Below, in pieces: positions 14,534 to 25,270 of a stretch of DNA of 64,000 nucleotides. Numbering within the stretch: position 1 is the stretch's first letter; each line of letters begins with the position of its first letter. The translations under genes were made by a program, and so were the position numbers. Where the stretch lies: positions 68,463 through 132,462 of the forward strand of contig DAOUEL010000011.1 of the NCBI GenBank assembly GCA_034430595.1, in the 5' to 3' direction. The notes beneath the pieces are model-generated. The model made no database searches and was not told where the DNA came from. It was given only the letters and a program-made list of their open reading frames with translations. Source of the stretch: Anaerolineales bacterium (GTDB taxonomy: Bacteria; Chloroflexota; Anaerolineae; Anaerolineales; E44-bin32).

Positions 14534-15220
14534 CTAGATTTTATGCTTTCTCCGCTCCCGTGCAACAGCCCAGAGCAATCCCAGAAATTTCAGTGTATCG
14601 CGAATCGGGTGGAAGTAGCTCTCCTTGCCAACATTATAGATGGTATCGATATCTACCCACCCAATCTTGAAACCATGATCGACCGCCTGGACCACAGCCT
14701 CGACCTCGAGCTCAAAACCATGGCGAGTAAGATTCAAGGCTTGTAGCAGTTCCCGGCTGTAGAGACGGTATCCACTCTGATTGTCATAGACCGGAGTTCC
14801 AAGCACGCGAGTCAGCATCCAGGAACCGATCGCATTTGCCATCGAGCGGGGAAAAGGCATGCGCTTGAAGTCCCGCCGTCCAATGATCAGTTCTCCCTGT
14901 CCCGAGCGAAAGGCACGGACAAGTTTCACCGCCTCACCCGGATCATGCTGACCATCCGCATCGAGCGTTAGAACTGCCTCGAAGTTGCGTTCGAGGGCCC
15001 ACGAAAATCCGGACATCAACGCAACACCCTTCCCCAGGTTACGCTCGTGCTGGAGAACCTGCGCACCCTGCGAGGCGGCAACCCGTGGAGTCTCATCCCA
15101 TGAACCATCGTCGACGACAAGCAACGGGAATAAATCCCGCAGGGGCTCCAGCACCGCACCAATCCGTTCAGCTTCGTTCCAGGCCGGGATCAGCGCCAGA
15201 ATTCCCGAATCTATGCTCAT
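14534..15220 (-). CDS. Family 2 glycosyltransferase (polyprenol-phosphate sugar synthase-like)
   Basis: LIPAWNEAERI, VVDDGSWDET, LDADGQHDP: GT-A/GT2 DxD-type motifs. Confidence 0.85.
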   Translation of the reverse strand: MSIDSGILALIPAWNEAERIGAVLEPLRDLFPLLVVDDGSWDETPRVAASQGAQVLQHERNLGKGVALMSGFSWALERNFEAVLTLDADGQHDPGEAVKLVRAFRSGQGELIIGRRDFKRMPFPRSMANAIGSWMLTRVLGTPVYDNQSGYRLYSRELLQALNLTRHGFELEVEAVVQAVDHGFKIGWVDIDTIYNVGKESYFHPIRDTLKFLGLLWAVARERRKHKI

Positions 15221-15401: not shown

Positions 15402-15430
15402 TTGGCTTGCACTGCTGGATTTGCTACACT
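15402..15430 (+). promoter_or_regulatory. Candidate sigma70-type promoter for the five-gene operon
   Basis: TTGGCT - 17 nt - TACACT, about 25 nt upstream of ATG 15454, in the 233-bp gap after the divergent GT2 gene. Confidence 0.35.
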
Positions 15431-15453
15431 GACTCAGATCTTTGAACGCCTGA

Positions 15454-15825
15454 ATGGGAGGCATGATGAAAGCAGGACGTCTGATAGCGTATATCGCCGC
15501 CGCAATTCTGATCTTTTTTGGAGTACTTGCTATCTGGGGAAGTCCATCAACCAACAAACCCGGTCTTAATCTCATAATTGGTGTAATAAGCATCGGTGCG
15601 GGGTTTGTCTTGATCTGGTTCGCCGGCCGCATGGGGCGCAATGACCGCGTGGAGATTATCCAGAAGATCGACCTCTCCGGCGACATGAATCTCGAATCGC
15701 TTCGCTGCCGCAACTGCGGGGGAGCGCTGAGTTCGAAAGACATCTCGATGGTCGAGGGCGCCCCATTTGTCAAATGCCCATACTGCGGGACGACATATCA
15801 ATTAACCGAAGAGCCAAAATGGTAG
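15454..15825 (+). CDS. Small two-TM membrane protein with C-terminal zinc ribbon
   Basis: Two hydrophobic helices (LIAYIAAAILIFFGVLAIW and LIIGVISIGAGFVLIWFAG), then CRNCGG...17 aa...CPYCG. Start uncertain: ATG at 15454, 15463 or 15466, with GGGAGG at 15456-15461. Confidence 0.7.
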   Translation: MGGMMKAGRLIAYIAAAILIFFGVLAIWGSPSTNKPGLNLIIGVISIGAGFVLIWFAGRMGRNDRVEIIQKIDLSGDMNLESLRCRNCGGALSSKDISMVEGAPFVKCPYCGTTYQLTEEPKW

Positions 15826-15859
15826 ATTGGCCGCGTCTTCAGCTGCCGAGGAGGAGACG

Positions 15860-17599
15860 ATGAATTCGCCCCTTCGCCGCGTTTCCATCTTCAACCAGAA
15901 TGGACACAGATCGCTCGCTCGCCGCTCTCGGGCGAGTCGTTGGCCGATTCTGGTTTCGCTTTCTCTCTCGATCCTGCTCCTCGTGCTCGCCGTGGTTTCT
16001 GCTTCGGGGCAGAGCTATTCCTTCAGCCTCGACCAGGAGACCGTCGATGTTTACCTTCAATCCGATGGCACGATGTCGCTGCTTTATCGGATGGTGTTCA
16101 CCAATGATCCCTCCGCACCTGCGATTGAATTCGTCGACCTCGGCATGCCCAGCCCGGCTTACGATCTATCAAGCATTGCGGCCTCGATCGATAACATCGG
16201 CATCAGTCATATCGCTAATTCCGAATACATCGACCAGGGCATCGAGCTTGGTTTGGGCTCAAACTCGATTCAACCCGGCCGGAGTGGGACGGTCGTCGTC
16301 CAGATCGCCAATGTTCGTGACATCCTCTATGAAGACACTCAGGGAGATAATTACGCCAGCGTTGAATTCTATCCGAACTACTTCGATTCGAATCTCGTCC
16401 ATGGCCGGACCGATCTCACGCTTCGCTTCCATCTGCCGCCAGGCGTCCAACCGGATGAGCCACGCTGGCACGACGCACCTGGCGGATGGCCAGACTCCTC
16501 CCCGGCGACCTACCTCGATAATGACCAGCGTGTCGTCTATGAATGGCACAATCCCTCTGCGAGTGCATCCACCGAGTACAAATTCGGTGCTTCCTTCCCG
16601 CAGAGCTATGTTCCGCCAGAGGCCATCGTCACGCCAGGCCGAATTTCATTCAACAACGATGCGCTCTTCAGTCTGTGCTGCTTCGGCGGCGTCTTCGGTG
16701 CAATCGCACTTTTTGTCGGCATCGGCATCTACTCCAGCCGGCGCCGCAAGCTGGACTACCTCCCGCCCAAGATCTCGATCGAGGGACACGGAATCAAACG
16801 CGGCCTGACGGCGATCGAAGCTGCGGTACTGCTCGAAACTCCGCTCGATCGGGTCCTCACAATGGTCCTGTTCTCGACGATCAAGAAGGGTGCAGCCAAG
16901 GTCGTAACCGAGGATCCACTTAAGGTCGAACGCCTCGAAAGCACGGCTGAACTGCGCGATTACGAGAAAGAATTTCTCGAAGCGATGATCGACAAGCCCG
17001 AGAACAAGCGCCGCAGCGCGCTGCAGGATGTCATGATCAACATCGTCAAATCGGTTCAGAAAAAGATGAAGGGCTTCAGCCTGCGCGAGACGCGTGATTA
17101 CTACAAGGCGATCATGAAGAAGGCTTGGGAGCAAATCGAGCAGGCCGAGACGCCCGAGGTGAAATCCGAGCGCTACGCGGAAGGGCTGGAGTGGACGATG
17201 CTCGACCGTGACTTCGACGACCGGACGAAGCGTGTCTTCCGTAGCGGTCCGGTATACCTGCCGCCGTGGTGGTGGTATTACCGGCCTTCAACCACGGTCG
17301 CCCGGCCAGCGACGATATCCTCCGGCCCATCCGGAGGCGGCCGGACGACGATTCAGATGCCCACCCTGCCGGGCTCGGAGTTTGCCGCCTCACTCGTTAC
17401 CGGCGTCCAGAACACCGCCTCAAAATTAGTATCGAACGTCGTCGGGTTCACCAACGGCGTAACAAAAACCACCAACCCGCCGCCACCACCGTCCAAATCG
17501 AGTGGTTGGTCGGGAGGTGGAAAGAGCGGCGGCTGCGCTTGTGCCTGCGCCTGCGCGTGCGCCGGATGCGCCTGTGCTTGTGCTGGAGGCGGACGGTGA
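15860..17599 (+). CDS. DUF2207-like bitopic membrane protein with C-terminal (Cys-Ala)n tail
   Basis: ATG 15860 preceded by GAGGAGGAG. It has a signal/anchor helix and an N-terminal domain starting YSFSLDQETVDVYLQSDGTMSLLYRMVF (DUF2207-like pattern). A second TM helix (FGGVFGAIALFVGIGIY) is followed by SRRRK, so positive-inside predicts a cytoplasmic C-terminus. The C-terminal domain is about 260 aa and ends GGCACACACACAGCACACAGGGR. Confidence 0.8.
   Translation: MNSPLRRVSIFNQNGHRSLARRSRASRWPILVSLSLSILLLVLAVVSASGQSYSFSLDQETVDVYLQSDGTMSLLYRMVFTNDPSAPAIEFVDLGMPSPAYDLSSIAASIDNIGISHIANSEYIDQGIELGLGSNSIQPGRSGTVVVQIANVRDILYEDTQGDNYASVEFYPNYFDSNLVHGRTDLTLRFHLPPGVQPDEPRWHDAPGGWPDSSPATYLDNDQRVVYEWHNPSASASTEYKFGASFPQSYVPPEAIVTPGRISFNNDALFSLCCFGGVFGAIALFVGIGIYSSRRRKLDYLPPKISIEGHGIKRGLTAIEAAVLLETPLDRVLTMVLFSTIKKGAAKVVTEDPLKVERLESTAELRDYEKEFLEAMIDKPENKRRSALQDVMINIVKSVQKKMKGFSLRETRDYYKAIMKKAWEQIEQAETPEVKSERYAEGLEWTMLDRDFDDRTKRVFRSGPVYLPPWWWYYRPSTTVARPATISSGPSGGGRTTIQMPTLPGSEFAASLVTGVQNTASKLVSNVVGFTNGVTKTTNPPPPPSKSSGWSGGGKSGGCACACACACAGCACACAGGGR
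17534..17584 (+). repeat. Coding (Cys-Ala) dipeptide repeat: 5 units, Gly, 3 units (8 Cys)
   Basis: Codons TGC GCT TGT GCC TGC GCC TGC GCG TGC GCC GGA TGC GCC TGT GCT TGT GCT. Synonymous codons are mixed. Confidence 0.95.
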
Positions 17600-18978
17600 G
17601 AAATCCCTTTCAACGTAGTTACACCTCCAGGAGCCCTTCGCCCGGGCTGCACGCATATACCCTCTCGCAGCATGGAGGGAGCGTACGGATCCATTTGAGA
17701 ATAGAGCCAGGTGGATCTGGACTTTTACTCATCAACGCCAACCGCTCGGTCCACCTTAACCCGACAGCGGGGCTGCTCGCCTGGCTCTATCTTGAAGGCT
17801 GCGAACGGGACGAGGCCACCATCCAGCTGCAGCAGCGGTATCGCATAACCAGGTCCGAAGCCCGGCGTGACGTGGAACAGGTATGGGACCAGCTGGAAGG
17901 CTTGCTGTCGCCGGAAGGCGCCTGCCCGGTCCACGACCTGGCGTTTAATATTGTCCCCCCATTTTCACAGGCGCCGAGCGCACCCTACCGGATGGACCTG
18001 GCGCTCACCTATCGCTGCAATGACAACTGCTCCCACTGCTACAATGCCCGCCCGCGAGATTTCCGGGAACTAAGCACGGAAGAGTGGTTCGCCATCCTGG
18101 ATCAGCTGTGGGAGATCGGCGTCCCTCACATCTGCTTTACGGGGGGCGAAGCTACTTTGCGTCAGGATCTGCCGGAACTCATCCGGCATGCAGAGCAAGC
18201 AGGCCAGATCACGGGTTTGCTCAGCAACGGTCGCCGCCTGCACGATGCCGGCTATGTTGCAAGTTTGGTCGAGGCTGGTCTCGACCATGTCCAGATTACC
18301 CTTGAATCGCTGAACGAAGCGACGCATGACCAAATGGTCGCGGCACCCGGTGCATGGCGCCAGACGGTGAAGGGAATTCGAAACGCACTCGAGGCAGGGC
18401 TGTTCGTCATGACCAATACAACCCTGCTGAATGCCAACGCAGGTGAGATCGGAGAAACCATCGATTACCTGGCTGAAATGGGTGTGCCCACGATCGGTAT
18501 CAATGCCCTGATTTACGCCGGTAAAGGTGCTACCGTGGGAACGGGGATTCCAGAATCGGCGCTTGAGCCGCTATTAAAGGAGGTCCGCGCTCGAACGGAG
18601 CGCAATGGACAGCGCTTGATCTGGTATACGCCCACTCAATACTGTCATTTCGATCCCGTCCAGCTCGAGCTGGGTGTAAAAGGCTGCACAGCGGCTGCAT
18701 ACAACATGTGCGTGGAACCTGACGGCGGCGTAATACCCTGCCAATCATTCTATGAGCAGCTCGGCAATATGCTCAGCGATTCATGGGATTCAATCTGGAA
18801 TCACGACCGTGCGCTCTGGCTCAGGGAGAAACGCTATGCCCCGCAGGCCTGCCAGGGTTGTAGTGTGCTTGCAGAGTGCGGTGGAGGCTGTCCGCTGACA
18901 CTTATAAACCAAACGGATGAAAGCATCCCCCAACCGCTGCATGTCCTGCCTTTAGCCGAGGCAAGTCCGGGAGGCTAG
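17596..18978 (+). CDS. Radical SAM/SPASM-domain maturase with N-terminal PqqD-like (RRE) domain
   Basis: GTG 17596 overlaps the upstream stop (GTGA) and has GGAGG 6 nt upstream. The N-terminus SGLLLINANRSVHLNPTAGLLAWLYLEG...RYRITRSEARRDVEQVWDQLEGLL follows the PqqD pattern. CX3CX2C = CNDNCSHC (18016..18039). SAM motif FTGGEATL. SPASM cysteines: CVEPDGGVIPC and CQGCSVLAECGGGC. Confidence 0.9.
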   Translation: MRNPFQRSYTSRSPSPGLHAYTLSQHGGSVRIHLRIEPGGSGLLLINANRSVHLNPTAGLLAWLYLEGCERDEATIQLQQRYRITRSEARRDVEQVWDQLEGLLSPEGACPVHDLAFNIVPPFSQAPSAPYRMDLALTYRCNDNCSHCYNARPRDFRELSTEEWFAILDQLWEIGVPHICFTGGEATLRQDLPELIRHAEQAGQITGLLSNGRRLHDAGYVASLVEAGLDHVQITLESLNEATHDQMVAAPGAWRQTVKGIRNALEAGLFVMTNTTLLNANAGEIGETIDYLAEMGVPTIGINALIYAGKGATVGTGIPESALEPLLKEVRARTERNGQRLIWYTPTQYCHFDPVQLELGVKGCTAAAYNMCVEPDGGVIPCQSFYEQLGNMLSDSWDSIWNHDRALWLREKRYAPQACQGCSVLAECGGGCPLTLINQTDESIPQPLHVLPLAEASPGG

Positions 18979-18982
18979 CACT

Positions 18983-20140
18983 ATGGAAGCGATACTCGAT
19001 CGAATCTTTGGAAAACAGGATATTCCGAGCGCCCCCGCGCCCGGAATATATCATCGCATGCTCACTGAAGGCGTGGAAAGCCCGCACCGCTTCCACCTGC
19101 GGATTGAAGCCGATGGGTCAGGCGTGCTTATCGTGGATGCCGCGATCATACTCCATCTGAACCCGACAGCTGCTGAGCACGCCTATTACATGGTTCAGGG
19201 CCAGGATGAGCGCAAGGCGGCTGAACAGCTCGCTGCTCGCTACCGTGTCAGTCCATCCAGGGCTCGCCAGGATCAGCACGAACTGCGTGAGCAGATTCTG
19301 GCCCTCGCCTCAACCCCCGATCTCGACCCTGTCGTCTTCCTTGGAATGGAGCGGATGGAGCCCGCCAGCATTCGCCCGCAAGCACCTTACCGCCTGGACT
19401 GCGCCTTGACCTATAGGCTAGATGAGAGCGGGACCCCTGACCCACTGGCTCGAGCCAGGGTTGATGCTGAATTGACGATGACTGAGTGGGAGGGCATCCT
19501 GCAGAAAGCATGGGAGGCTGGCATTCCTCATATAACCTTTACCGGAGGCGAACCGACACTTCGCGATGATCTGGGAGATCTGATCAGTTTTTCCGAGGAG
19601 CTCGGACAAGTCACCGGGCTATTGACGGATGGTAAAAGGCTGGCAGATGAGAAATATCTTGATCAACTCGATCAAGCCGGGCTGGATCATATCTTGATCG
19701 TTTACGATCCTGATGACCCGCGCTGCGAAGCGGGACTCATGAACGCGCTCGGTACGGAGATTTTCACGGCTGTTCATCTGCTGATCGAAGATGAAGCTGG
19801 TGTGAGTGAGCAGCAGTGGCTTCACCTCAAAGAGCTCGGTGTGGGCTCGGTATCACTGTCATCCACGAGTGGAAGCAGTGCCCTGGCTGAGGCGCTGCGC
19901 CAGGCTCGCGACCGAGCTGCAGCGCACGGTCTCGACCTGATCTGGGATCTGGCCGCACCCTACTCAGCCCATAACCCAATTCAAGGTGAACTCGAAACCC
20001 CGCCCGCGGGCGCCGGAACGGCCTGGCTCTACGTGGAACCCGATGGGGATGTTCTCCCGAGCCAGGGAGTGAACAAAATCCTCGGCAATCTACTGCGCGA
20101 TCCATGGGACCATATCTGGGCACGTACAATGGGAGAATGA
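18983..20140 (+). CDS. Degenerate radical-SAM paralog (PqqD-like domain retained, all Fe-S cysteines lost)
   Basis: Aligns with the preceding protein: RFHLRIEADGSGVLIVDAAIILHLNPTAAEHAYYMV vs IHLRIEPGGSGLLLINANRSVHLNPTAGLLAWLYL, and YRLDCALTYRLDESGTPDP vs YRMDLALTYRCNDNCSHCY. FTGGEPTL is retained. YVEPDGDVLPSQG replaces CVEPDGGVIPCQS. The protein ends before the CX2CX5CX3C block. GGGAGG RBS. Confidence 0.85.
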   Translation: MEAILDRIFGKQDIPSAPAPGIYHRMLTEGVESPHRFHLRIEADGSGVLIVDAAIILHLNPTAAEHAYYMVQGQDERKAAEQLAARYRVSPSRARQDQHELREQILALASTPDLDPVVFLGMERMEPASIRPQAPYRLDCALTYRLDESGTPDPLARARVDAELTMTEWEGILQKAWEAGIPHITFTGGEPTLRDDLGDLISFSEELGQVTGLLTDGKRLADEKYLDQLDQAGLDHILIVYDPDDPRCEAGLMNALGTEIFTAVHLLIEDEAGVSEQQWLHLKELGVGSVSLSSTSGSSALAEALRQARDRAAAHGLDLIWDLAAPYSAHNPIQGELETPPAGAGTAWLYVEPDGDVLPSQGVNKILGNLLRDPWDHIWARTMGE

Positions 20141-20174
20141 GGTTCGGTCGGCATTCGCTTTCACAATCGGCGAG

Positions 20175-20951
20175 ATGGAAATGCGGGATACCATGCTAGA
20201 GCAGCTCCATCGTCGATACCTCGAGCAGGCGGTTTGGACTGCGGCTTCCAGGAGTCGCCTGCTTGATCTCGCGAATCTGGAACCCGGCTCCAGCATATTG
20301 GAAGTTGGCTCAGGTACAGGAGTCATCTGCGCCGACACCGCACGCGAGCACGATTATCAGCTCTTTGGGCTCGACATTAATCAAAAAGCCGTTTCATTTG
20401 CCACCCGATTCGATCCCCACTCAAATTATCTGGTCGGGGACGGATTCGATCTTCCATTTCCATCCTCCTCGTTCGATGCCGTCTTCTGCCACTTTCTGCT
20501 TTTATGGGTCGAAGTACCATCCAGGATCCTGCACGAAATGCTTCGCATTCTCCATCCTGGGGGCCGCCTTATAACTTTTGCGGAACCCGATTACGGCGGC
20601 CGGGTTGATCACCCGCCAGAGTTGGTCGAACTCGGCCTGCTCCAAATCGAGGCACTCCAACGAGCCGGAGCTCACCCGTTCATTGGGCGGCGTTTGCGCG
20701 GGCTGCTGCATGATGCCGGTGCACGGCATATCTTCAGCGGCGTTATAGGGGCGGAGTGGCACCCATCCGACGTGGAGCATGCTTCAAGCTCAGAACGAGA
20801 GATCCTGCTGCAGGACCTGGGCGGAGACCTGCCGGATGAGCAGCTTCGTGGACTGTTCGCGGCAGGTCAAAACGCCGCTCTTGCCGGGGATTGGACGCTC
20901 TTCGTTCCGACCTTCTTTGCACTCGGCTACGCTCCCGAAAAAATCACGTGA
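20175..20951 (+). CDS. Class I SAM-dependent methyltransferase (Methyltransf_11/UbiE-like)
   Basis: SAM motif I ILEVGSGTGV, post-I LFGLDIN, and FDAVFCHFLLLWV...LHPGGRL. Confidence 0.85.
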   Translation: MEMRDTMLEQLHRRYLEQAVWTAASRSRLLDLANLEPGSSILEVGSGTGVICADTAREHDYQLFGLDINQKAVSFATRFDPHSNYLVGDGFDLPFPSSSFDAVFCHFLLLWVEVPSRILHEMLRILHPGGRLITFAEPDYGGRVDHPPELVELGLLQIEALQRAGAHPFIGRRLRGLLHDAGARHIFSGVIGAEWHPSDVEHASSSEREILLQDLGGDLPDEQLRGLFAAGQNAALAGDWTLFVPTFFALGYAPEKIT

Positions 20952-21055
20952 GGACTTTCGATCTGGCGAATGGGGATCCCACCTCAGCCAGCGAGGCACC
21001 CTGACAGATTTTCGGCCACAGCCATTATCAGCATCATGCCACCAAGTATGGATAC

Positions 21056-21090
21056 AAAAACAAGGCCTGCTTTGCAGGCCTTGTTTCCTC
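21056..21090. terminator. Bidirectional terminator between the methyltransferase gene and fhs
   Basis: AAACAAGGCCTGC-TTT-GCAGGCCTTGTTT: 13-bp stem with an A-tract upstream and a T-rich run downstream. Confidence 0.85.
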
Positions 21091-21110: not shown

Positions 21111-22895
21111 CTAGAACAACCCGACGATCTTTCCGTCTTCGAGATCGATGTCGATATCCATGTAGGCAGGGCGCGTCGCCAGGCCGGGCATCGTGCTCAT
21201 CGCACCCACCAGCGGATAGATGAAGCCGGCGCCAACGCTGGCCCGCACCTCGCGGATGGGAACGGTAAAGCCCTTCGGCACACCCTTCAGCGCCGGGTCG
21301 TGGCTCAGGCTGAGGTGAGTCTTGGCCATGCAGATCGGTAGACCACCGAAACCGGCCTCTTCATACTTGGCAATTTGCTCTTCTGCCGGCGGCTCGAACT
21401 TCACTCCATCGGCGCCGTAGAACTCGGTCGCGATGTATTCGATCTTCTTCTTGATCGACCAATCCAATGGATAGAGGAATTTGAAGTCGCTCGGCTGCTC
21501 ACAGGCTTCGACGACGGCTTCAGCTAATTTAGCTGCGCCGGCTCCGCCGTCGGCCCAATGGGTGCTCTTTACCGCGGCAAAGGCGCCTTCGCCTTCGGCA
21601 TACTCCCGCACCATCTCCATCTCGGCGTCGGTGTCATCCGTGAAGCCATTGACGCATACGACGACCGGGATGCCGTACCGGCGGGCGTTCTTGATGTGTA
21701 CACCCAGATTCCCCAGGCCTGCTTTCAGCAAGTCGAGGTTTTCCTCCGTGTACGCCTTGTCGAGCGGGGCGCCAGGAGAAACCTTCGGGCCACCACCATG
21801 CATTTTCAACGCCCGGACGGTGGCGACGAGCACAACCGCGTTCGGGATCAAGCCTGAGTAGCGGCACTTGATATCGAAGAACTTTTCCATCCCGATATCC
21901 GCGCCGAATCCGCTTTCGGTGACAACGTAATCACCAAGCTTGAGCGCGATCTGGTCGGCGATGATCGAAGAGTTGCCGTGGGCGATGTTGGCGAACGGTC
22001 CGCAGTGCACGAAGGCAGGCTGGCCTTCCAGCGTCTGCATCAGGTTCGGCATCAGCGCGTCCTTGAGCAGGACGGTGGCCGCACCGGCGACGCCGAGCTG
22101 CTCGAGTGAGACCGGGTTGCCCTTCTTATCGAGGCCGACCACTGCCCGCCCAACGCGCTCACGCAGGTCCTTCAGACTTGTTGCCAGCGCCAGGATCGCC
22201 ATGAACTCGGAGGCGACCGTAATATCGAAGCCGGTGCCTCGCGGGAAGACCGGGCTGGGCGAACCATCCGCCAGTTTGTCATCATTGAAGCCGATTTTAA
22301 TCTTACGCAGGCTGCGGTCACATAAGTCAACGACCCGGTTCCAGGTGATGGTGTCGGGGTCCACGTCGATGCGTGTAACGCCGCGTCGTTCAAGGGCCTC
22401 ATCGCTCTGGCGGCTCTCATGATACATGCGTGTATCGAGCGCAGCCGCGACAAGGTTGTGGGCAATACTGATGGCATGAATATCCCCGGTCAGATGCAGG
22501 TTGAAATCTTCCATTGGGATGATCTGGCTGTAGCCGCCGCCTGCCGCCCCTCCCTTGATGTTGAAGGTCGGACCCATGCTCGGCTGGCGAATGCAGGCAA
22601 TTACGTTCTTGCCCAGCACCGTTCCCATCGCCTGCGTCAAGCCGAGGGTTGAAGTGGTTTTCCCCTCCCCAAGCGGTGTAGGCGTGATCGCCGTCACGTC
22701 AATATATTTCCCCTGCGGACGATCGCTGACTTTCTTGAGCACATCCAGATGGACCTTGGCCTTGAACTTGCCGTACAAATCCAGGTCGTCCATTCCCAAG
22801 CCTAACTTCTCGGCGATCTCGAGAATCGGCCTTAAGTCTGCCTCCTGCGCGATCTCGATGTCTGAGGGCACAGGTCGCTTCGGTTTCAGTACCAT
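21111..22895 (-). CDS. fhs: Formate--tetrahydrofolate ligase
   Basis: 594 aa. N-terminus [10 protein letters not shown]..., nucleotide loop [16 protein letters not shown]. Typical FTHFS length and pattern. Confidence 0.97.
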
Positions 22896-23158: not shown

Positions 23159-25270
23159 GTGGACAAGACCAAGTGGCGCCTGAGCTTCACTGCTCGAGTG
23201 ACCATAGCCTACCTTGTTGCGATACTGGCAACGACACTGGCTGCTGGGGTACCGGCCTACAGTATTGTAAGCATCCGGCTCAATCAGCAAGCTTCCGAAC
23301 AGCTGGCATCCGGGGAACGCGTCGCCAACGCTCTCCTCCAATCGGCAGCAGAAAGTCAGTCTTTCCTGGCACGACTTATCAGCCAACGCCCCACGCTTCT
23401 GCGAATGCTGAGCGAGGGCGATCAACCAGGGCTGGACGCCTACCTGCGCATTCTGCTTGATAATTCGGAACTGGACCAGCTGGCCGTGCTGTATCCAACG
23501 GGCGATTTTTTCGCAGGTAGTCCCCGGCCCGGCAAACCTCTGACTGAACCTTCATCGAATGAGCCGCGCGTTCTTGCACCGACCGACGACGGTGAATTGC
23601 CACTACTGGTGGTTTTTCAACCAGTCGACGACGCTGAGAGTGGGGAAACGTTGGGTTTTGTATACACTGGGCGTGCGCTCGACTCGGAATTCTGCCACGA
23701 ACTTACCGAAATTAGTGGGTTTGAGGGCAGCATCCTATGGCAAAGTAGACGTATCGCATCCAGCCTCAGTGCCTCTACTTTCGTAATTTCAGAAATTGCA
23801 TCTGAAGATCCTGCTTCAAGAAATACAAACTACTCAACCCCGATCCAAATCGGCGACCAGAGATATCTTGCGGGCTACATCAGCATTCCCTTTGCCGCAG
23901 ATCAAGATCTGAAGCTGGAGATCGCACTTCCTGTAGACGATCTGCTGCGAACCCAGAAGCAAGCGTTGTTAATGCTGATTTTCAGCACTGCCATCGTAGC
24001 GCTCATCACCAGCATATTCGCGATCCGTTATGCCCGGCAGATCACTTCCCCGCTTAAAGCCTTGACACTGGCAGCAGAGAAAATTGGACATGGTGATTTG
24101 TCCACGCCAGTCCCAGTGCCTGCAGCAGATGATGAGATTTCAACCCTCGCCCTGGCACTTGAAGAAAGCCGCTTGAAAACGCATAACGTGATGGAAGAAC
24201 TCTCTCAGGCAATCGCCTGGTCCCAGACGCTGATCCAATCGATCAGCGAAGGGATCGTTACGGTCAACCTGGAAGGCGTGATTACATCATTTAACCAGGG
24301 AGCAGAGAGGATTCTCGGATATGGGCAAGAGCAGGTCGTGAATCGACCGCTGACTGAGATTCTCAAGATTCAGGGTGATGGAGAAGTAGATGAATTGCTT
24401 TCAATCACTGCGGGGGTTCAACAGTTTACGGTAACTACAGGAAGCGGTAATTCGACAACGCTTAGCGTAAACAGTACCCGTTTCGCTACTCCTGACCATC
24501 AGTCAGATGAGATCGCACTTGTGCTGCGTGATGTGACAGAACAAGAAGCTCTGCAAAATTTACGCAGCTACTTCCTGGCTAACATCTCGCACGAGTTTCG
24601 CACCCCTCTATCCGCTCTGAATGCTTCCGTTGAACTGATGCTTTCGGAATCGGATGATCTCGGTACTGATGAAATCCGCAGATTGTTGAGCTCGGTTCAT
24701 ATGAGCGTCACTGGACTGCAAACACTAATTGATAATCTTCTCGAGAGTGCGAGCATAGAAGCCGGAAAATTCGCAATTCACCGGCAGGTAACGGATCTTG
24801 AGCAGGTTCTGCAAGATGCTGGTGGTATGCTGCAACCGCTTCTCGATCGCAGGGGTCAGCGAATTGAGATCCTGATGCAAAAAGATTCCGGCTGGATCTT
24901 CGCTGACCCGACGCGCATCACGCAGGTTCTGGTGAACTTGATCTCAAATGCTAGCAAGTATGGGCCTATCGATGAACCAATCGAGGTGCGAATCGAAGCG
25001 ATTGGCGAGGAGCAAATTAGGATCAGCGTGGCCGATCATGGCCCGGGACTTACCTATTCGGAGCGGTCGACAATCTTCAGGCGGTTTGTTCGCCTGCGAT
25101 CCGATCAAAGCGCTCAATACGGAATGGGACTGGGTCTATATGTAGTGAAAGCAATCGTGGAGGAACACGGTGGCGAGGTCGGCGTGGAAGACCGACCCGG
25201 CGGCGGCTCGGTCTTCTGGTTTACACTACCAGGCACAGCAGGAAATGAGTATGAAAGCCCTCGTCGTTGA
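23159..25270 (+). CDS. Membrane sensor histidine kinase (periplasmic domain-HAMP-PAS-HisKA-HATPase)
   Basis: Two TM helices flank a ~250-aa extracytoplasmic region. HAMP (PLKALTLAAEKIGHGDLSTPV), PAS, H-box NISHEFRTPL, ISNASKYGP, DHGPGL, GMGLGLYVVK. Confidence 0.9.
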   Translation: MDKTKWRLSFTARVTIAYLVAILATTLAAGVPAYSIVSIRLNQQASEQLASGERVANALLQSAAESQSFLARLISQRPTLLRMLSEGDQPGLDAYLRILLDNSELDQLAVLYPTGDFFAGSPRPGKPLTEPSSNEPRVLAPTDDGELPLLVVFQPVDDAESGETLGFVYTGRALDSEFCHELTEISGFEGSILWQSRRIASSLSASTFVISEIASEDPASRNTNYSTPIQIGDQRYLAGYISIPFAADQDLKLEIALPVDDLLRTQKQALLMLIFSTAIVALITSIFAIRYARQITSPLKALTLAAEKIGHGDLSTPVPVPAADDEISTLALALEESRLKTHNVMEELSQAIAWSQTLIQSISEGIVTVNLEGVITSFNQGAERILGYGQEQVVNRPLTEILKIQGDGEVDELLSITAGVQQFTVTTGSGNSTTLSVNSTRFATPDHQSDEIALVLRDVTEQEALQNLRSYFLANISHEFRTPLSALNASVELMLSESDDLGTDEIRRLLSSVHMSVTGLQTLIDNLLESASIEAGKFAIHRQVTDLEQVLQDAGGMLQPLLDRRGQRIEILMQKDSGWIFADPTRITQVLVNLISNASKYGPIDEPIEVRIEAIGEEQIRISVADHGPGLTYSERSTIFRRFVRLRSDQSAQYGMGLGLYVVKAIVEEHGGEVGVEDRPGGGSVFWFTLPGTAGNEYESPRR

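Follow-up and report, generated by a model that had tools for sequence, protein, structure and literature searches.

Genomic coupling of a radical SAM/SPASM enzyme with a Cys-Ala-tailed membrane protein points to a tail-tethered modification system in bacteria and archaea

The window analyzed here is a 64,000-nucleotide stretch of an Anaerolineales genome (positions 68,463 to 132,462 of contig DAOUEL010000011.1, assembly GCA_034430595.1). Between its positions 15454 and 20951, five close-packed genes lie on the plus strand, with intergenic gaps of 34, −4, 4, and 34 nt. The second of these genes encodes a membrane protein that ends in a run of alternating cysteine and alanine, and the third encodes a radical S-adenosylmethionine (SAM) enzyme that carries a SPASM domain and an N-terminal recognition element of the kind found in the maturation of peptides that are synthesized on ribosomes and modified after translation (RiPPs), the RiPP recognition element (RRE). 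An original prediction, made from the letters of this DNA, proposed that the tail is the substrate of the enzyme. Our comparison of genomes indicates that tail and enzyme are paired across distant bacteria and archaea, and this pairing points to an undescribed, widespread modification carried on a protein's own tail. The five genes and the gaps between them were recovered as the original prediction had described them, and the features of the locus are these:

15454..15825, plus strand: gene 1, a zinc-ribbon protein with two transmembrane helices (open reading frame, transmembrane segments and charges, weak Pfam/NCBIfam zinc-ribbon matches)
15860..17599, plus strand: gene 2, a 579-residue bitopic membrane protein and proposed substrate (open reading frame, AlphaFold2 model, topology)
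17447..17491, plus strand: leader-like motif in gene 2 (conservation among homologs)
17534..17596, plus strand: core Cys-Ala tail of gene 2 (sequence and family conservation)
17596..18978, plus strand: gene 3, RRE, radical SAM, and SPASM domains, the proposed catalyst (Pfam, AlphaFold2, fold matches)
18983..20140, plus strand: gene 4, a Cys-less paralog of gene 3 (alignment with gene 3, partial Radical_SAM match)
20175..20951, plus strand: gene 5, a class I SAM-dependent methyltransferase (Methyltransf_11)
21058..21086, strand not applicable: hairpin between the convergent gene 5 and formate-tetrahydrofolate (THF) ligase gene (fold energy)

The final residues of the gene 2 protein are CACACACACAGCACACAGGGR, and its terminus is exactly ...GGCACACACACAGCACACAGGGR. 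Within it, the core C559-ACACACACAGCACACAGGG-R579 holds seven-plus cysteines that alternate with alanine, a single glycine between two (CA)n blocks, and a closing GGGR directly before the stop codon. The tail pattern gave four overlapping matches in the window and none in 100 shuffles. Since its codons are mixed (TGC/TGT and GCT/GCC/GCG), the tail is not a DNA repeat artifact, and together with the conservation seen at the protein level this rules out a microsatellite origin. That conservation is extreme. The gene 2 family comprises 876 cluster representatives (50% identity) at E < 1e-3, and the tail was found in 122 of the 150 representatives examined for it, which are all those whose alignment reaches the C terminus. 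The other 28 align solely to N-terminal or central parts of the protein and are thus fragments. The last block reads C-A-C-A-C-A-[G/S]-G-G, usually followed by one Arg, with Cys in 122/122 representatives at three positions and Ala in 121–122 of 122. Every tail class breaks the C-x alternation once, where an additional G, S, or A stands between blocks. In the Bacillota version, ...CACACACACAGGGRAGCSxKDFY, a further 15–40 residues follow.

The residues ahead of the core are conserved very unevenly. Among the 120 closest gene 2 homologs (55–100% identity) the tail is essentially invariant and the preceding linker variable, and column conservation accordingly runs from its maximum in the tail (>0.9) to near zero in the G/S linker, then up again at F..VT..TNPP. 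This upstream motif, F530-TNGVTKTTNPPPPP-544, stands about 15–30 residues before the Cys core. Its residues F530, T538, N539, P540, and P542 are invariant among 53 homologs; across representatives of <50% identity it is moderately conserved, and its form varies between tail classes. The C terminus of gene 2 thus appears to be laid out as leader, linker, and core, and the F530–P544 motif is a candidate docking site for an RRE.

The remainder of gene 2 places this C terminus inside the cell. An N-terminal anchor or signal (aa 30–48) and a transmembrane helix (aa ∼266–300) enclose an extracytoplasmic beta-sandwich (aa 55–250). In the AlphaFold2 model, whose predicted local distance difference test score (pLDDT) is 75 overall and mostly >90 in the blocks of the sandwich, a cytoplasmic winged-helix and helical domain (aa 318–460) follows, and then a disordered C-terminal region (aa 478–579). 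Hydropathy and the positive-inside rule both predict a cytoplasmic tail, in agreement with the original prediction. Because it is predicted to be disordered and cytoplasmic, the tail should be accessible to a soluble enzyme; it is also hydrophobic on the Kyte-Doolittle scale. Of the structures in the PDB, ribophorin I/Ost1 and the M1 aminopeptidase N-domain come closest in fold, and no Pfam, NCBIfam, or PDB sequence match was found at normal thresholds.

The protein had been described as DUF2207-like and bitopic. The bitopic architecture stands, and the DUF2207 likeness is reduced to a weak resemblance because gene 2 misses the Pfam gathering scores (DUF2207_C scores 14.3 bits, with the cut-off at 33). 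Weak DUF2207_C matches occur in 7 of 53 family members and a weak match to the DUF2207 N-terminal domain in 1, and Bacillota-type tail proteins match that N-terminal domain at E ∼0.004. DUF2207 proteins (PF09972/PF20990; for example, Streptococcus mutans SMU.243, PMC10457818) share with gene 2 an extracytoplasmic N-terminal beta-sandwich, one or more transmembrane segments, a helical region in the cytoplasm, and a C terminus rich in Gly. The literature searched held no tie of DUF2207 to radical SAM enzymes or to a (Cys-Ala)n tail.

Gene 3 has the domain content expected of a peptide-modifying radical enzyme. It scores above the Pfam cut-offs for Radical_SAM (PF04055; 1e-27, 97.7 bits against 29.5), SPASM (PF13186/TIGR04085; 3.7e-9, 37.2 bits against 21.5), and PqqD/RRE (PF05402; 1.1e-5, 26.1 bits against 23.4). 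The RRE spans aa ∼17–104, the CX3CX2C motif aa 141–148 (C141/C145/C148), the GGE motif aa 183–185 (FTGGEAT), and the SPASM domain aa ∼350–434. SPASM domains bind two auxiliary 4Fe-4S clusters through the pattern CX9-15GX4C ... CX2CX5CX3C ... C, and the corresponding cysteines of gene 3 are C364...G377x4C382 and C419x2C422x5C428x3C432, plus C350 and C372. The original prediction had named the CX3CX2C and GGE motifs, the PqqD/RRE domain, and a full set of SPASM cysteines. All were borne out except the last, since the last downstream Cys of the seven-Cys motif is missing in gene 3; it is present in archaeal homologs. The AlphaFold2 model shows four short beta-strands (17–54), three helices (56–104), a partial TIM barrel, and the SPASM region; its N-terminal strands and helices are consistent with an RRE, for which binding of a leader peptide is predicted.

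The relatives of gene 3 are RiPP maturases, and they are distant. Among PDB structures, the folds that match it best over the full length are those of SkfB and SuiB, two maturases with an RRE; PqqE comes next, and anSME and the epimerase EpeE stand at ranks 10 and 36. In sequence searches SkfB (2.5e-23) precedes PqqE (8.6e-21), so that the sactisynthase SkfB is the closest relative by both sequence and fold. Gene 3 scores below every NCBIfam equivalog cut-off, including those of PqqE (TIGR02109; 127.4 against 381), SkfB (TIGR04403; 90.3 against 300), and NirJ2 (133.4 against 500). With 72.6 bits against 625 for NF045574, it is not a member of the StsB family. Gene 4 and the Bacillota and archaeal versions of gene 3 likewise matched no NCBIfam equivalog above its cut-off. 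In public records these proteins carry generic names, “hypothetical protein” or “radical SAM protein,” and in one case “PqqD family peptide modification chaperone.”

The strongest link between the tail and the enzyme comes from a search that used the tail and nothing else. A degenerate DNA pattern encoding CACACAGGG, with no other part of the host protein, was run against 185,579 species genomes and returned at least 120 loci, each taken as an 8-kb block; all counts from this search are among the loci listed. Genes 1–5 were then compared by phmmer with the six-frame open reading frames of each block, and a radical SAM match was called strong at E < 1e-20. Bacterial tails were found in Anaerolineae, Dehalococcoidia, Lachnospiraceae, Oscillospiraceae, other Clostridia, Planctomycetota, Polyangiaceae (Myxococcota), Acidobacteriota/Aminicenantes, Hydrogenedentales, Zixibacteria, and Chitinivibrionia. 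Archaeal tails were found in Bathyarchaeia/Thermoproteota, Methanomassiliicoccales/Thermoplasmatota, Heimdallarchaeota, and Nanoarchaeia. Together, tails with an adjoining gene-3-like radical SAM gene occur in at least 10 phyla of bacteria and archaea.

Tails with at least five Cys were present at 109 loci, 87 of which have a strong gene-3-like radical SAM/SPASM gene in the block. At four more (L014, L043, L082, and L087) a partial radical SAM gene is cut by the block edge; L043 was for this reason rejected as an exception. At about 12 loci the block is truncated toward the expected position of the enzyme, and two (L026 and L092) are chance matches despite their Cys count. About 91 of the ∼95 evaluable genuine tails therefore have a gene-3-like radical SAM gene beside them. 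By comparison, none of the seven chance matches (L026, L092, and five with fewer than five Cys) has one.

This coupling holds whatever the lineage, the order of the genes, or the architecture of the host protein. The order is g1-g2-g3-g4(-g5) in Chloroflexota, g1-g2-g3(±g5) in archaea, and g1-g3(-dead paralog)-g2(-g5) in Planctomycetota and Myxococcota, and in Bacillota the radical SAM gene lies immediately upstream of a shorter tail protein (330–580 aa). The enzyme is thus encoded downstream of the tail in Chloroflexota and archaea, and upstream of it in Bacillota and Planctomycetota. The converse test started from 80 close metagenomic orthologs of gene 3. Of the 67 loci that could be evaluated, 65 have a gene 2 with the tail immediately upstream of the ortholog, and one further locus has the variant tail ...CACACAGGSR. 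The linkage between tail and radical SAM gene that the original prediction asked to see surveyed is therefore present in both directions.

The loci offer no other conserved candidate substrate. No conserved small precursor open reading frame flanks the 44 orthologous operons compared. At 37 Bacillota-type loci, where open reading frames of at least 50 aa were screened, the radical SAM enzyme and the tail protein are the sole conserved genes. A hidden small precursor, which the original prediction had named as the alternative, was rejected on these grounds. In none of the lineages compared is there a conserved protease or exporter. The sole conserved Cys-rich candidate substrate is the tail of the 579-residue membrane protein, and the linkage together with the lack of a conserved precursor supports the proposal that the tail is what the enzyme acts on. 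At some loci (L035:2004-6117, L150:688-4099, L199, and L200) two tail proteins, in tandem or flanking, accompany one radical SAM enzyme, an arrangement that resembles, by analogy, RiPP clusters with several precursors.

The remaining genes of the cluster are conserved to different degrees. Gene 1 encodes a small inner-membrane protein with transmembrane helices at aa 10–28 and 40–58 and a cytoplasmic C-terminal zinc ribbon (CRNCGG...CPYCG; terminus YQLTEEPKW) that matches Pfam and NCBIfam zinc ribbons weakly. In Chloroflexota and archaea its homologs are encoded on the upstream side of the tail protein, and the CxxC...CxxC motif is kept in 48/48 gene-1-like open reading frames. Two tail loci that return below, L011 and L072, still carry gene 1. 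In 11 of 30 Lachnospiraceae-type tail proteins (for example, L006:1973-3448 and L013:1800-3113) a zinc ribbon with the motif CPxCGAxRxEGKxxCxYC is fused in cis. Since the separate ribbon of gene 1 is fused within these proteins, it forms a Rosetta-stone link between genes 1 and 2.

Gene 4 is 38% identical to gene 3, and the alignment confirms the earlier description of it as a paralog without Fe-S ligands. It has YRLDESGTPDPL in place of YRCNDNCSHCYN, has lost all SPASM cysteines, and ends early, and it retains the N-terminal RRE-like region and FTGGEPTLR. Its Radical_SAM match is partial (3e-8, 34.4 bits), and its PqqD score of 17.2 bits is below the cut-off. Because CX3CX2C is absent, its sequence marks it as a catalytically dead pseudo-enzyme. 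It follows gene 3 in most Chloroflexota-type loci, and the paralog is largely confined to that phylum. Cys-less gene-3-like paralogs, likewise lacking CX3CX2C, also occur at L121:3680-5047 (Pirellulales) and L054:2198-4282 (“uncultured delta proteobacterium”). A dead radical SAM partner thus recurs outside Chloroflexota, where it possibly arose independently.

Gene 5 is a class I methyltransferase, as had been predicted (Methyltransf_11; 8.5e-22, 78.1 bits against a cut-off of 21.2). Its best NCBIfam match, the DVU_1556-family methyltransferase, reaches 68.3 bits against a cut-off of 155, so that it falls outside that family. Gene-5-like genes were present in 15/42 Chloroflexota-type, 6/9 Methanomassiliicoccales/Heimdall-type, and 3/5 Planctomycetota-type blocks; the Bacillota- and Bathyarchaeia-type blocks examined contain no such gene. 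The dead paralog and the methyltransferase are lineage-specific accessories, and the conserved core consists of the radical SAM enzyme and the tail protein, which the zinc-ribbon protein usually accompanies. The self-contained five-gene unit of the original prediction is therefore an accurate picture of the packing at this locus, and the unit that is conserved is smaller.

It is useful to compare these genes with characterized systems. The nearest precedent is StsA/StsB/StsC of Streptomyces sparsogenes, with the related BlaA/BlaB, in which StsB and an RRE protein convert the StsA core CxCxCx4GxGxG into three hairpin-register Cys-to-Gly S-C-alpha sactionines (PMC10288494). Both systems combine a radical SAM/SPASM enzyme and an RRE with a core in which alternating Cys are followed by small acceptor residues. 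They differ in that StsA is a short, free precursor served by a separate RRE protein, whereas here the core is the C terminus of a 579-residue membrane protein, x is an invariant Ala, the RRE is fused to the enzyme, and a dead paralog is present. SkfB (the sporulation killing factor sactisynthase) and SuiB (the streptide Lys-Trp cross-linker) match gene 3 best and over its whole length, including the N-terminal RRE. However, their identity to gene 3 is only 17–21%, SkfB has a twitch-type auxiliary cluster, and both act on short peptides that are exported and whose genes lie next to those of proteases or transporters. PqqE, a radical SAM/SPASM enzyme that requires the PqqD-type RRE, is among the top hidden Markov model and PDB matches of gene 3, but it forms a Glu-Tyr C-C bond in PqqA, and the locus has no PqqA-like peptide or other pqq genes. 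QhpD, which makes thioethers in the QhpC subunit, and anSME, which makes formylglycine in sulfatases, are SPASM enzymes that modify Cys in full-length proteins. Their substrate motifs are different, their substrates are soluble or periplasmic enzymes rather than the repeat tail of a membrane protein, and no homology-level membership of gene 3 in either group was found. The tail lacks the sulfatase motif C/S-x-P/A-x-R, and no sulfatase is encoded nearby. Sactipeptide and ranthipeptide clusters are not matched either, as no short precursor is encoded by the radical SAM gene and no leader protease or exporter is conserved.

None of the curated Pfam and NCBIfam families describes the pairing of tail and radical SAM enzyme. 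Neither the tail nor the system is described in the full-text literature searched, and the strings “ACACAGGGR” and “CACACACACAGGGR” were absent from it. RRE-guided radical SAM maturation is a known kind of process, and what would be new here is its use on a full-length membrane protein's tail. RiPP mining drops candidate precursors of >600 bp as false positives (PMC10288494), and this filter plausibly explains why the system was overlooked.

We propose a protein-tethered, RiPP-like maturation, in which the RRE guides a radical modification of the in-cis tail that most likely yields thioether cross-links. We consider this probable, though well short of certain. Gene 2 would present a flexible cytoplasmic C terminus made up of the F..VT..TNPPP leader-like motif, a variable Gly/Ser linker, and the invariant core (CA)4-G-(CA)3-GGGR. 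The N-terminal RRE of gene 3 would dock onto the leader-like region, its radical SAM core would abstract hydrogen atoms in the tail core, and the SPASM auxiliary clusters would handle the Cys thiolates. The most likely products would be intramolecular thioethers that join Cys sulfur to the C-alpha (sactionine) or C-beta of conserved Ala or Gly. These cross-links would probably form in a hairpin register centered on the inserted Gly and give a rigid polycyclic cap at the cytoplasmic end of the protein. A hairpin with the inserted residue at its apex would pair A568:C570, C567:A571 ... C563:A575, and C561:G577. Speculatively, it would put each Cys opposite Ala or Gly, which would fit both donor/acceptor pairing and the strict conservation of Ala. 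Gene 4 would probably act as a second RRE or scaffold subunit with no catalytic role, gene 5 could methylate the product or a leftover thiol in some lineages, and gene 1 may be a membrane zinc-ribbon partner. Cys-rich cores processed by RRE-SPASM enzymes have mostly given thioethers (sactionine or ranthionine), and this record, the kinship with SkfB, and the StsA precedent make a thioether the likeliest chemistry.

In its widest form, the proposal is a claim that we are slightly more inclined to accept than to doubt. It holds that bacteria and archaea share a new post-translational modification system, its hosts including Asgard archaea as well as Clostridia from the human gut and the rumen. 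In this system, a radical SAM/SPASM enzyme would convert the invariant (Cys-Ala)n-GGG tail, on the cytoplasmic side of a DUF2207-like membrane protein, into an attached covalent structure, either a polycyclic thioether ladder or a D/L-alternating membrane-active helix. That structure would serve as a protein-derived cofactor, a metal site, or a membrane-interaction module. In effect, this would be a RiPP-type pathway with a full-length membrane protein as its “precursor,” one passed over as mining discards candidates above the length limit given above.

Several points weigh against thioether maturation of the tail. The substrate assignment derives from comparative genomics. Four of the 109 tails (L011, L072, L065, and L093) have no radical SAM gene in the 8-kb block despite adequate flanks. 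The metagenomic converse test took in close orthologs only (55–66% identity) and is therefore weaker than the cross-phylum test. Gene 3 lies so far under each curated maturase cut-off that its chemistry cannot be transferred by homology, and the Bacillota-type radical SAM enzymes gave no PqqD match, so that RRE dependence may not be universal. In addition, CxC repeats are classic metal-thiolate ligands, as in metallothionein and CopY.

The tail could be the substrate of a different chemistry, which we regard as possible but unlikely. Epimerization, as by YydG/EpeE and PoyD, could turn it into a D/L-alternating, gramicidin-like, membrane-inserting beta-helix, or an anSME-like oxidation could convert its Cys to formylglycine or another product, possibly followed by methylation. 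All evidence for the coupling of tail and enzyme fits these chemistries equally, the strict invariance of Ala would also suit Ala as the epimerization site, the tail is hydrophobic, and anSME and EpeE are both among the fold neighbors of gene 3. Nevertheless, SkfB, SuiB, and PqqE are nearer to gene 3 than either of them, the sulfatase motif is absent from the tail, and the RRE-SPASM record on Cys-rich cores, StsA included, runs mostly to thioethers. More doubtful is the suggestion that the tail is no substrate at all. It would instead be a metallothionein-like metal- or Fe-S-binding element or a docking element at the membrane, gene 2 would be a membrane anchor or redox partner, and the enzyme would have some other target, such as the gene 1 product, a small molecule, or a lipid. 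The known affinity of CxC repeats for Cu(I), Zn, or Fe-S speaks for this, as do the membrane location of both gene 1 and gene 2 and the presence of the lipid-modifying radical SAM enzyme GDGT-MAS among the fold and sequence neighbors of gene 3. However, the GDGT-MAS match is limited to the radical SAM core and has a low TM-score, the RRE domain argues for a peptide substrate, and no other conserved candidate substrate is encoded. The invariant Ala, the leader-like motif, and the disordered linker also fit a leader-core logic.

That same leader-core-like organization would be expected if the tail were a RiPP precursor that is cut from the protein once modified and set free as a small product, with the membrane protein as a giant leader. 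The residues that follow the Bacillota core, which make it not strictly C-terminal, could be read in the same way. We nevertheless think this very unlikely, given that no protease or exporter is conserved and that a conserved two-domain membrane protein of 550 aa is implausible as a disposable leader. The original prediction also carried a caveat, that Gly/Cys-rich tails of DUF2207/TPM-type proteins occur where there are no radical SAM neighbors. The Cys-Ala tail could then be another of these, inherited in synteny with the enzyme and with no functional link to it, and within Anaerolineae common descent by itself could explain the synteny. For this (Cys-Ala)n-GGG tail the caveat does not hold. 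The coupling is kept across phyla of both bacteria and archaea, through shuffled gene orders and different host-protein architectures, and the radical SAM gene is absent beside chance matches. Inherited synteny is thus strongly disfavored, to the point of being nearly negligible.

Radical SAM maturation of the tail, if correct, would be relevant in several ways. RRE-dependent radical SAM enzymes are usually sought beside short precursors, and the substrate indicated here is a tail that a large membrane protein carries in cis. The system is abundant, as the number of tail-protein clusters attests, phylogenetically broad, and spread widely among anaerobic bacteria and archaea. Radical SAM enzymology would gain a new class of substrate, probably with new cross-link chemistry on an Ala/Cys repeat, and DUF2207-like membrane proteins would gain a first functional handle. 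The system would also offer a natural example of an active/dead pair of radical SAM paralogs.

The surroundings of the cluster are as the original prediction had them, with minus-strand genes on both sides. These flanking genes are unrelated to it: LigA, a lipid-A-type acyltransferase, a family 2 (GT2) glycosyltransferase (14534-15220), and formate-THF ligase (21111-22895). A strong hairpin terminator had also been called at the downstream end. The hairpin itself is sound, with a GC-rich 13-bp stem, a fold energy of −23 kcal/mol, and z = −4.66. It has no clean U-tract, and a consensus terminator scan did not list it because the tract is imperfect. It is probably a terminator common to gene 5 and the ligase gene. 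About 2 kb downstream, past the ligase gene, a dCache-HAMP-PAS histidine kinase is encoded on the plus strand (23159-25270); nothing indicates that it is part of the cluster.

Within the cluster, Shine-Dalgarno sequences precede ATG 15860 (GGAGG, 8 nt upstream) and GTG 17596, the latter overlapping the gene 2 stop (GTGA). The annotated gene 1 ATG at 15454 is followed by GGGAGG and then by ATGATG, and homologs start MKxGRL.... Because the Shine-Dalgarno sequence falls within annotated codons 2–3, translation probably begins at ATG 15463 or 15466. A 570-residue open reading frame listed at 17266-18978 was rejected as a longer gene. It is gene 3 run upstream through an alternative frame of the tail-coding region (..RLRLCLRLRVRRMRLCLCWRR..), an artifact of the Cys/Ala codon run. 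Among the tail loci, a subfamily of ∼770-residue tail proteins (L001:8001-10316, P0066; also P0069 and P0076) has an extra N-terminal region of ∼200 residues, and the L001 locus reads g1-g2-g3-g4 with no methyltransferase. The system is also present in two cultured isolates, Ornatilinea apprima P3M-1 (L115), which has all five genes of the cluster, and Gemmiger formicilis ATCC 27749 (L116), which has the two-gene type, and in the closed Asgard genome of Ca. Heimdallarchaeum aukensis (L078).

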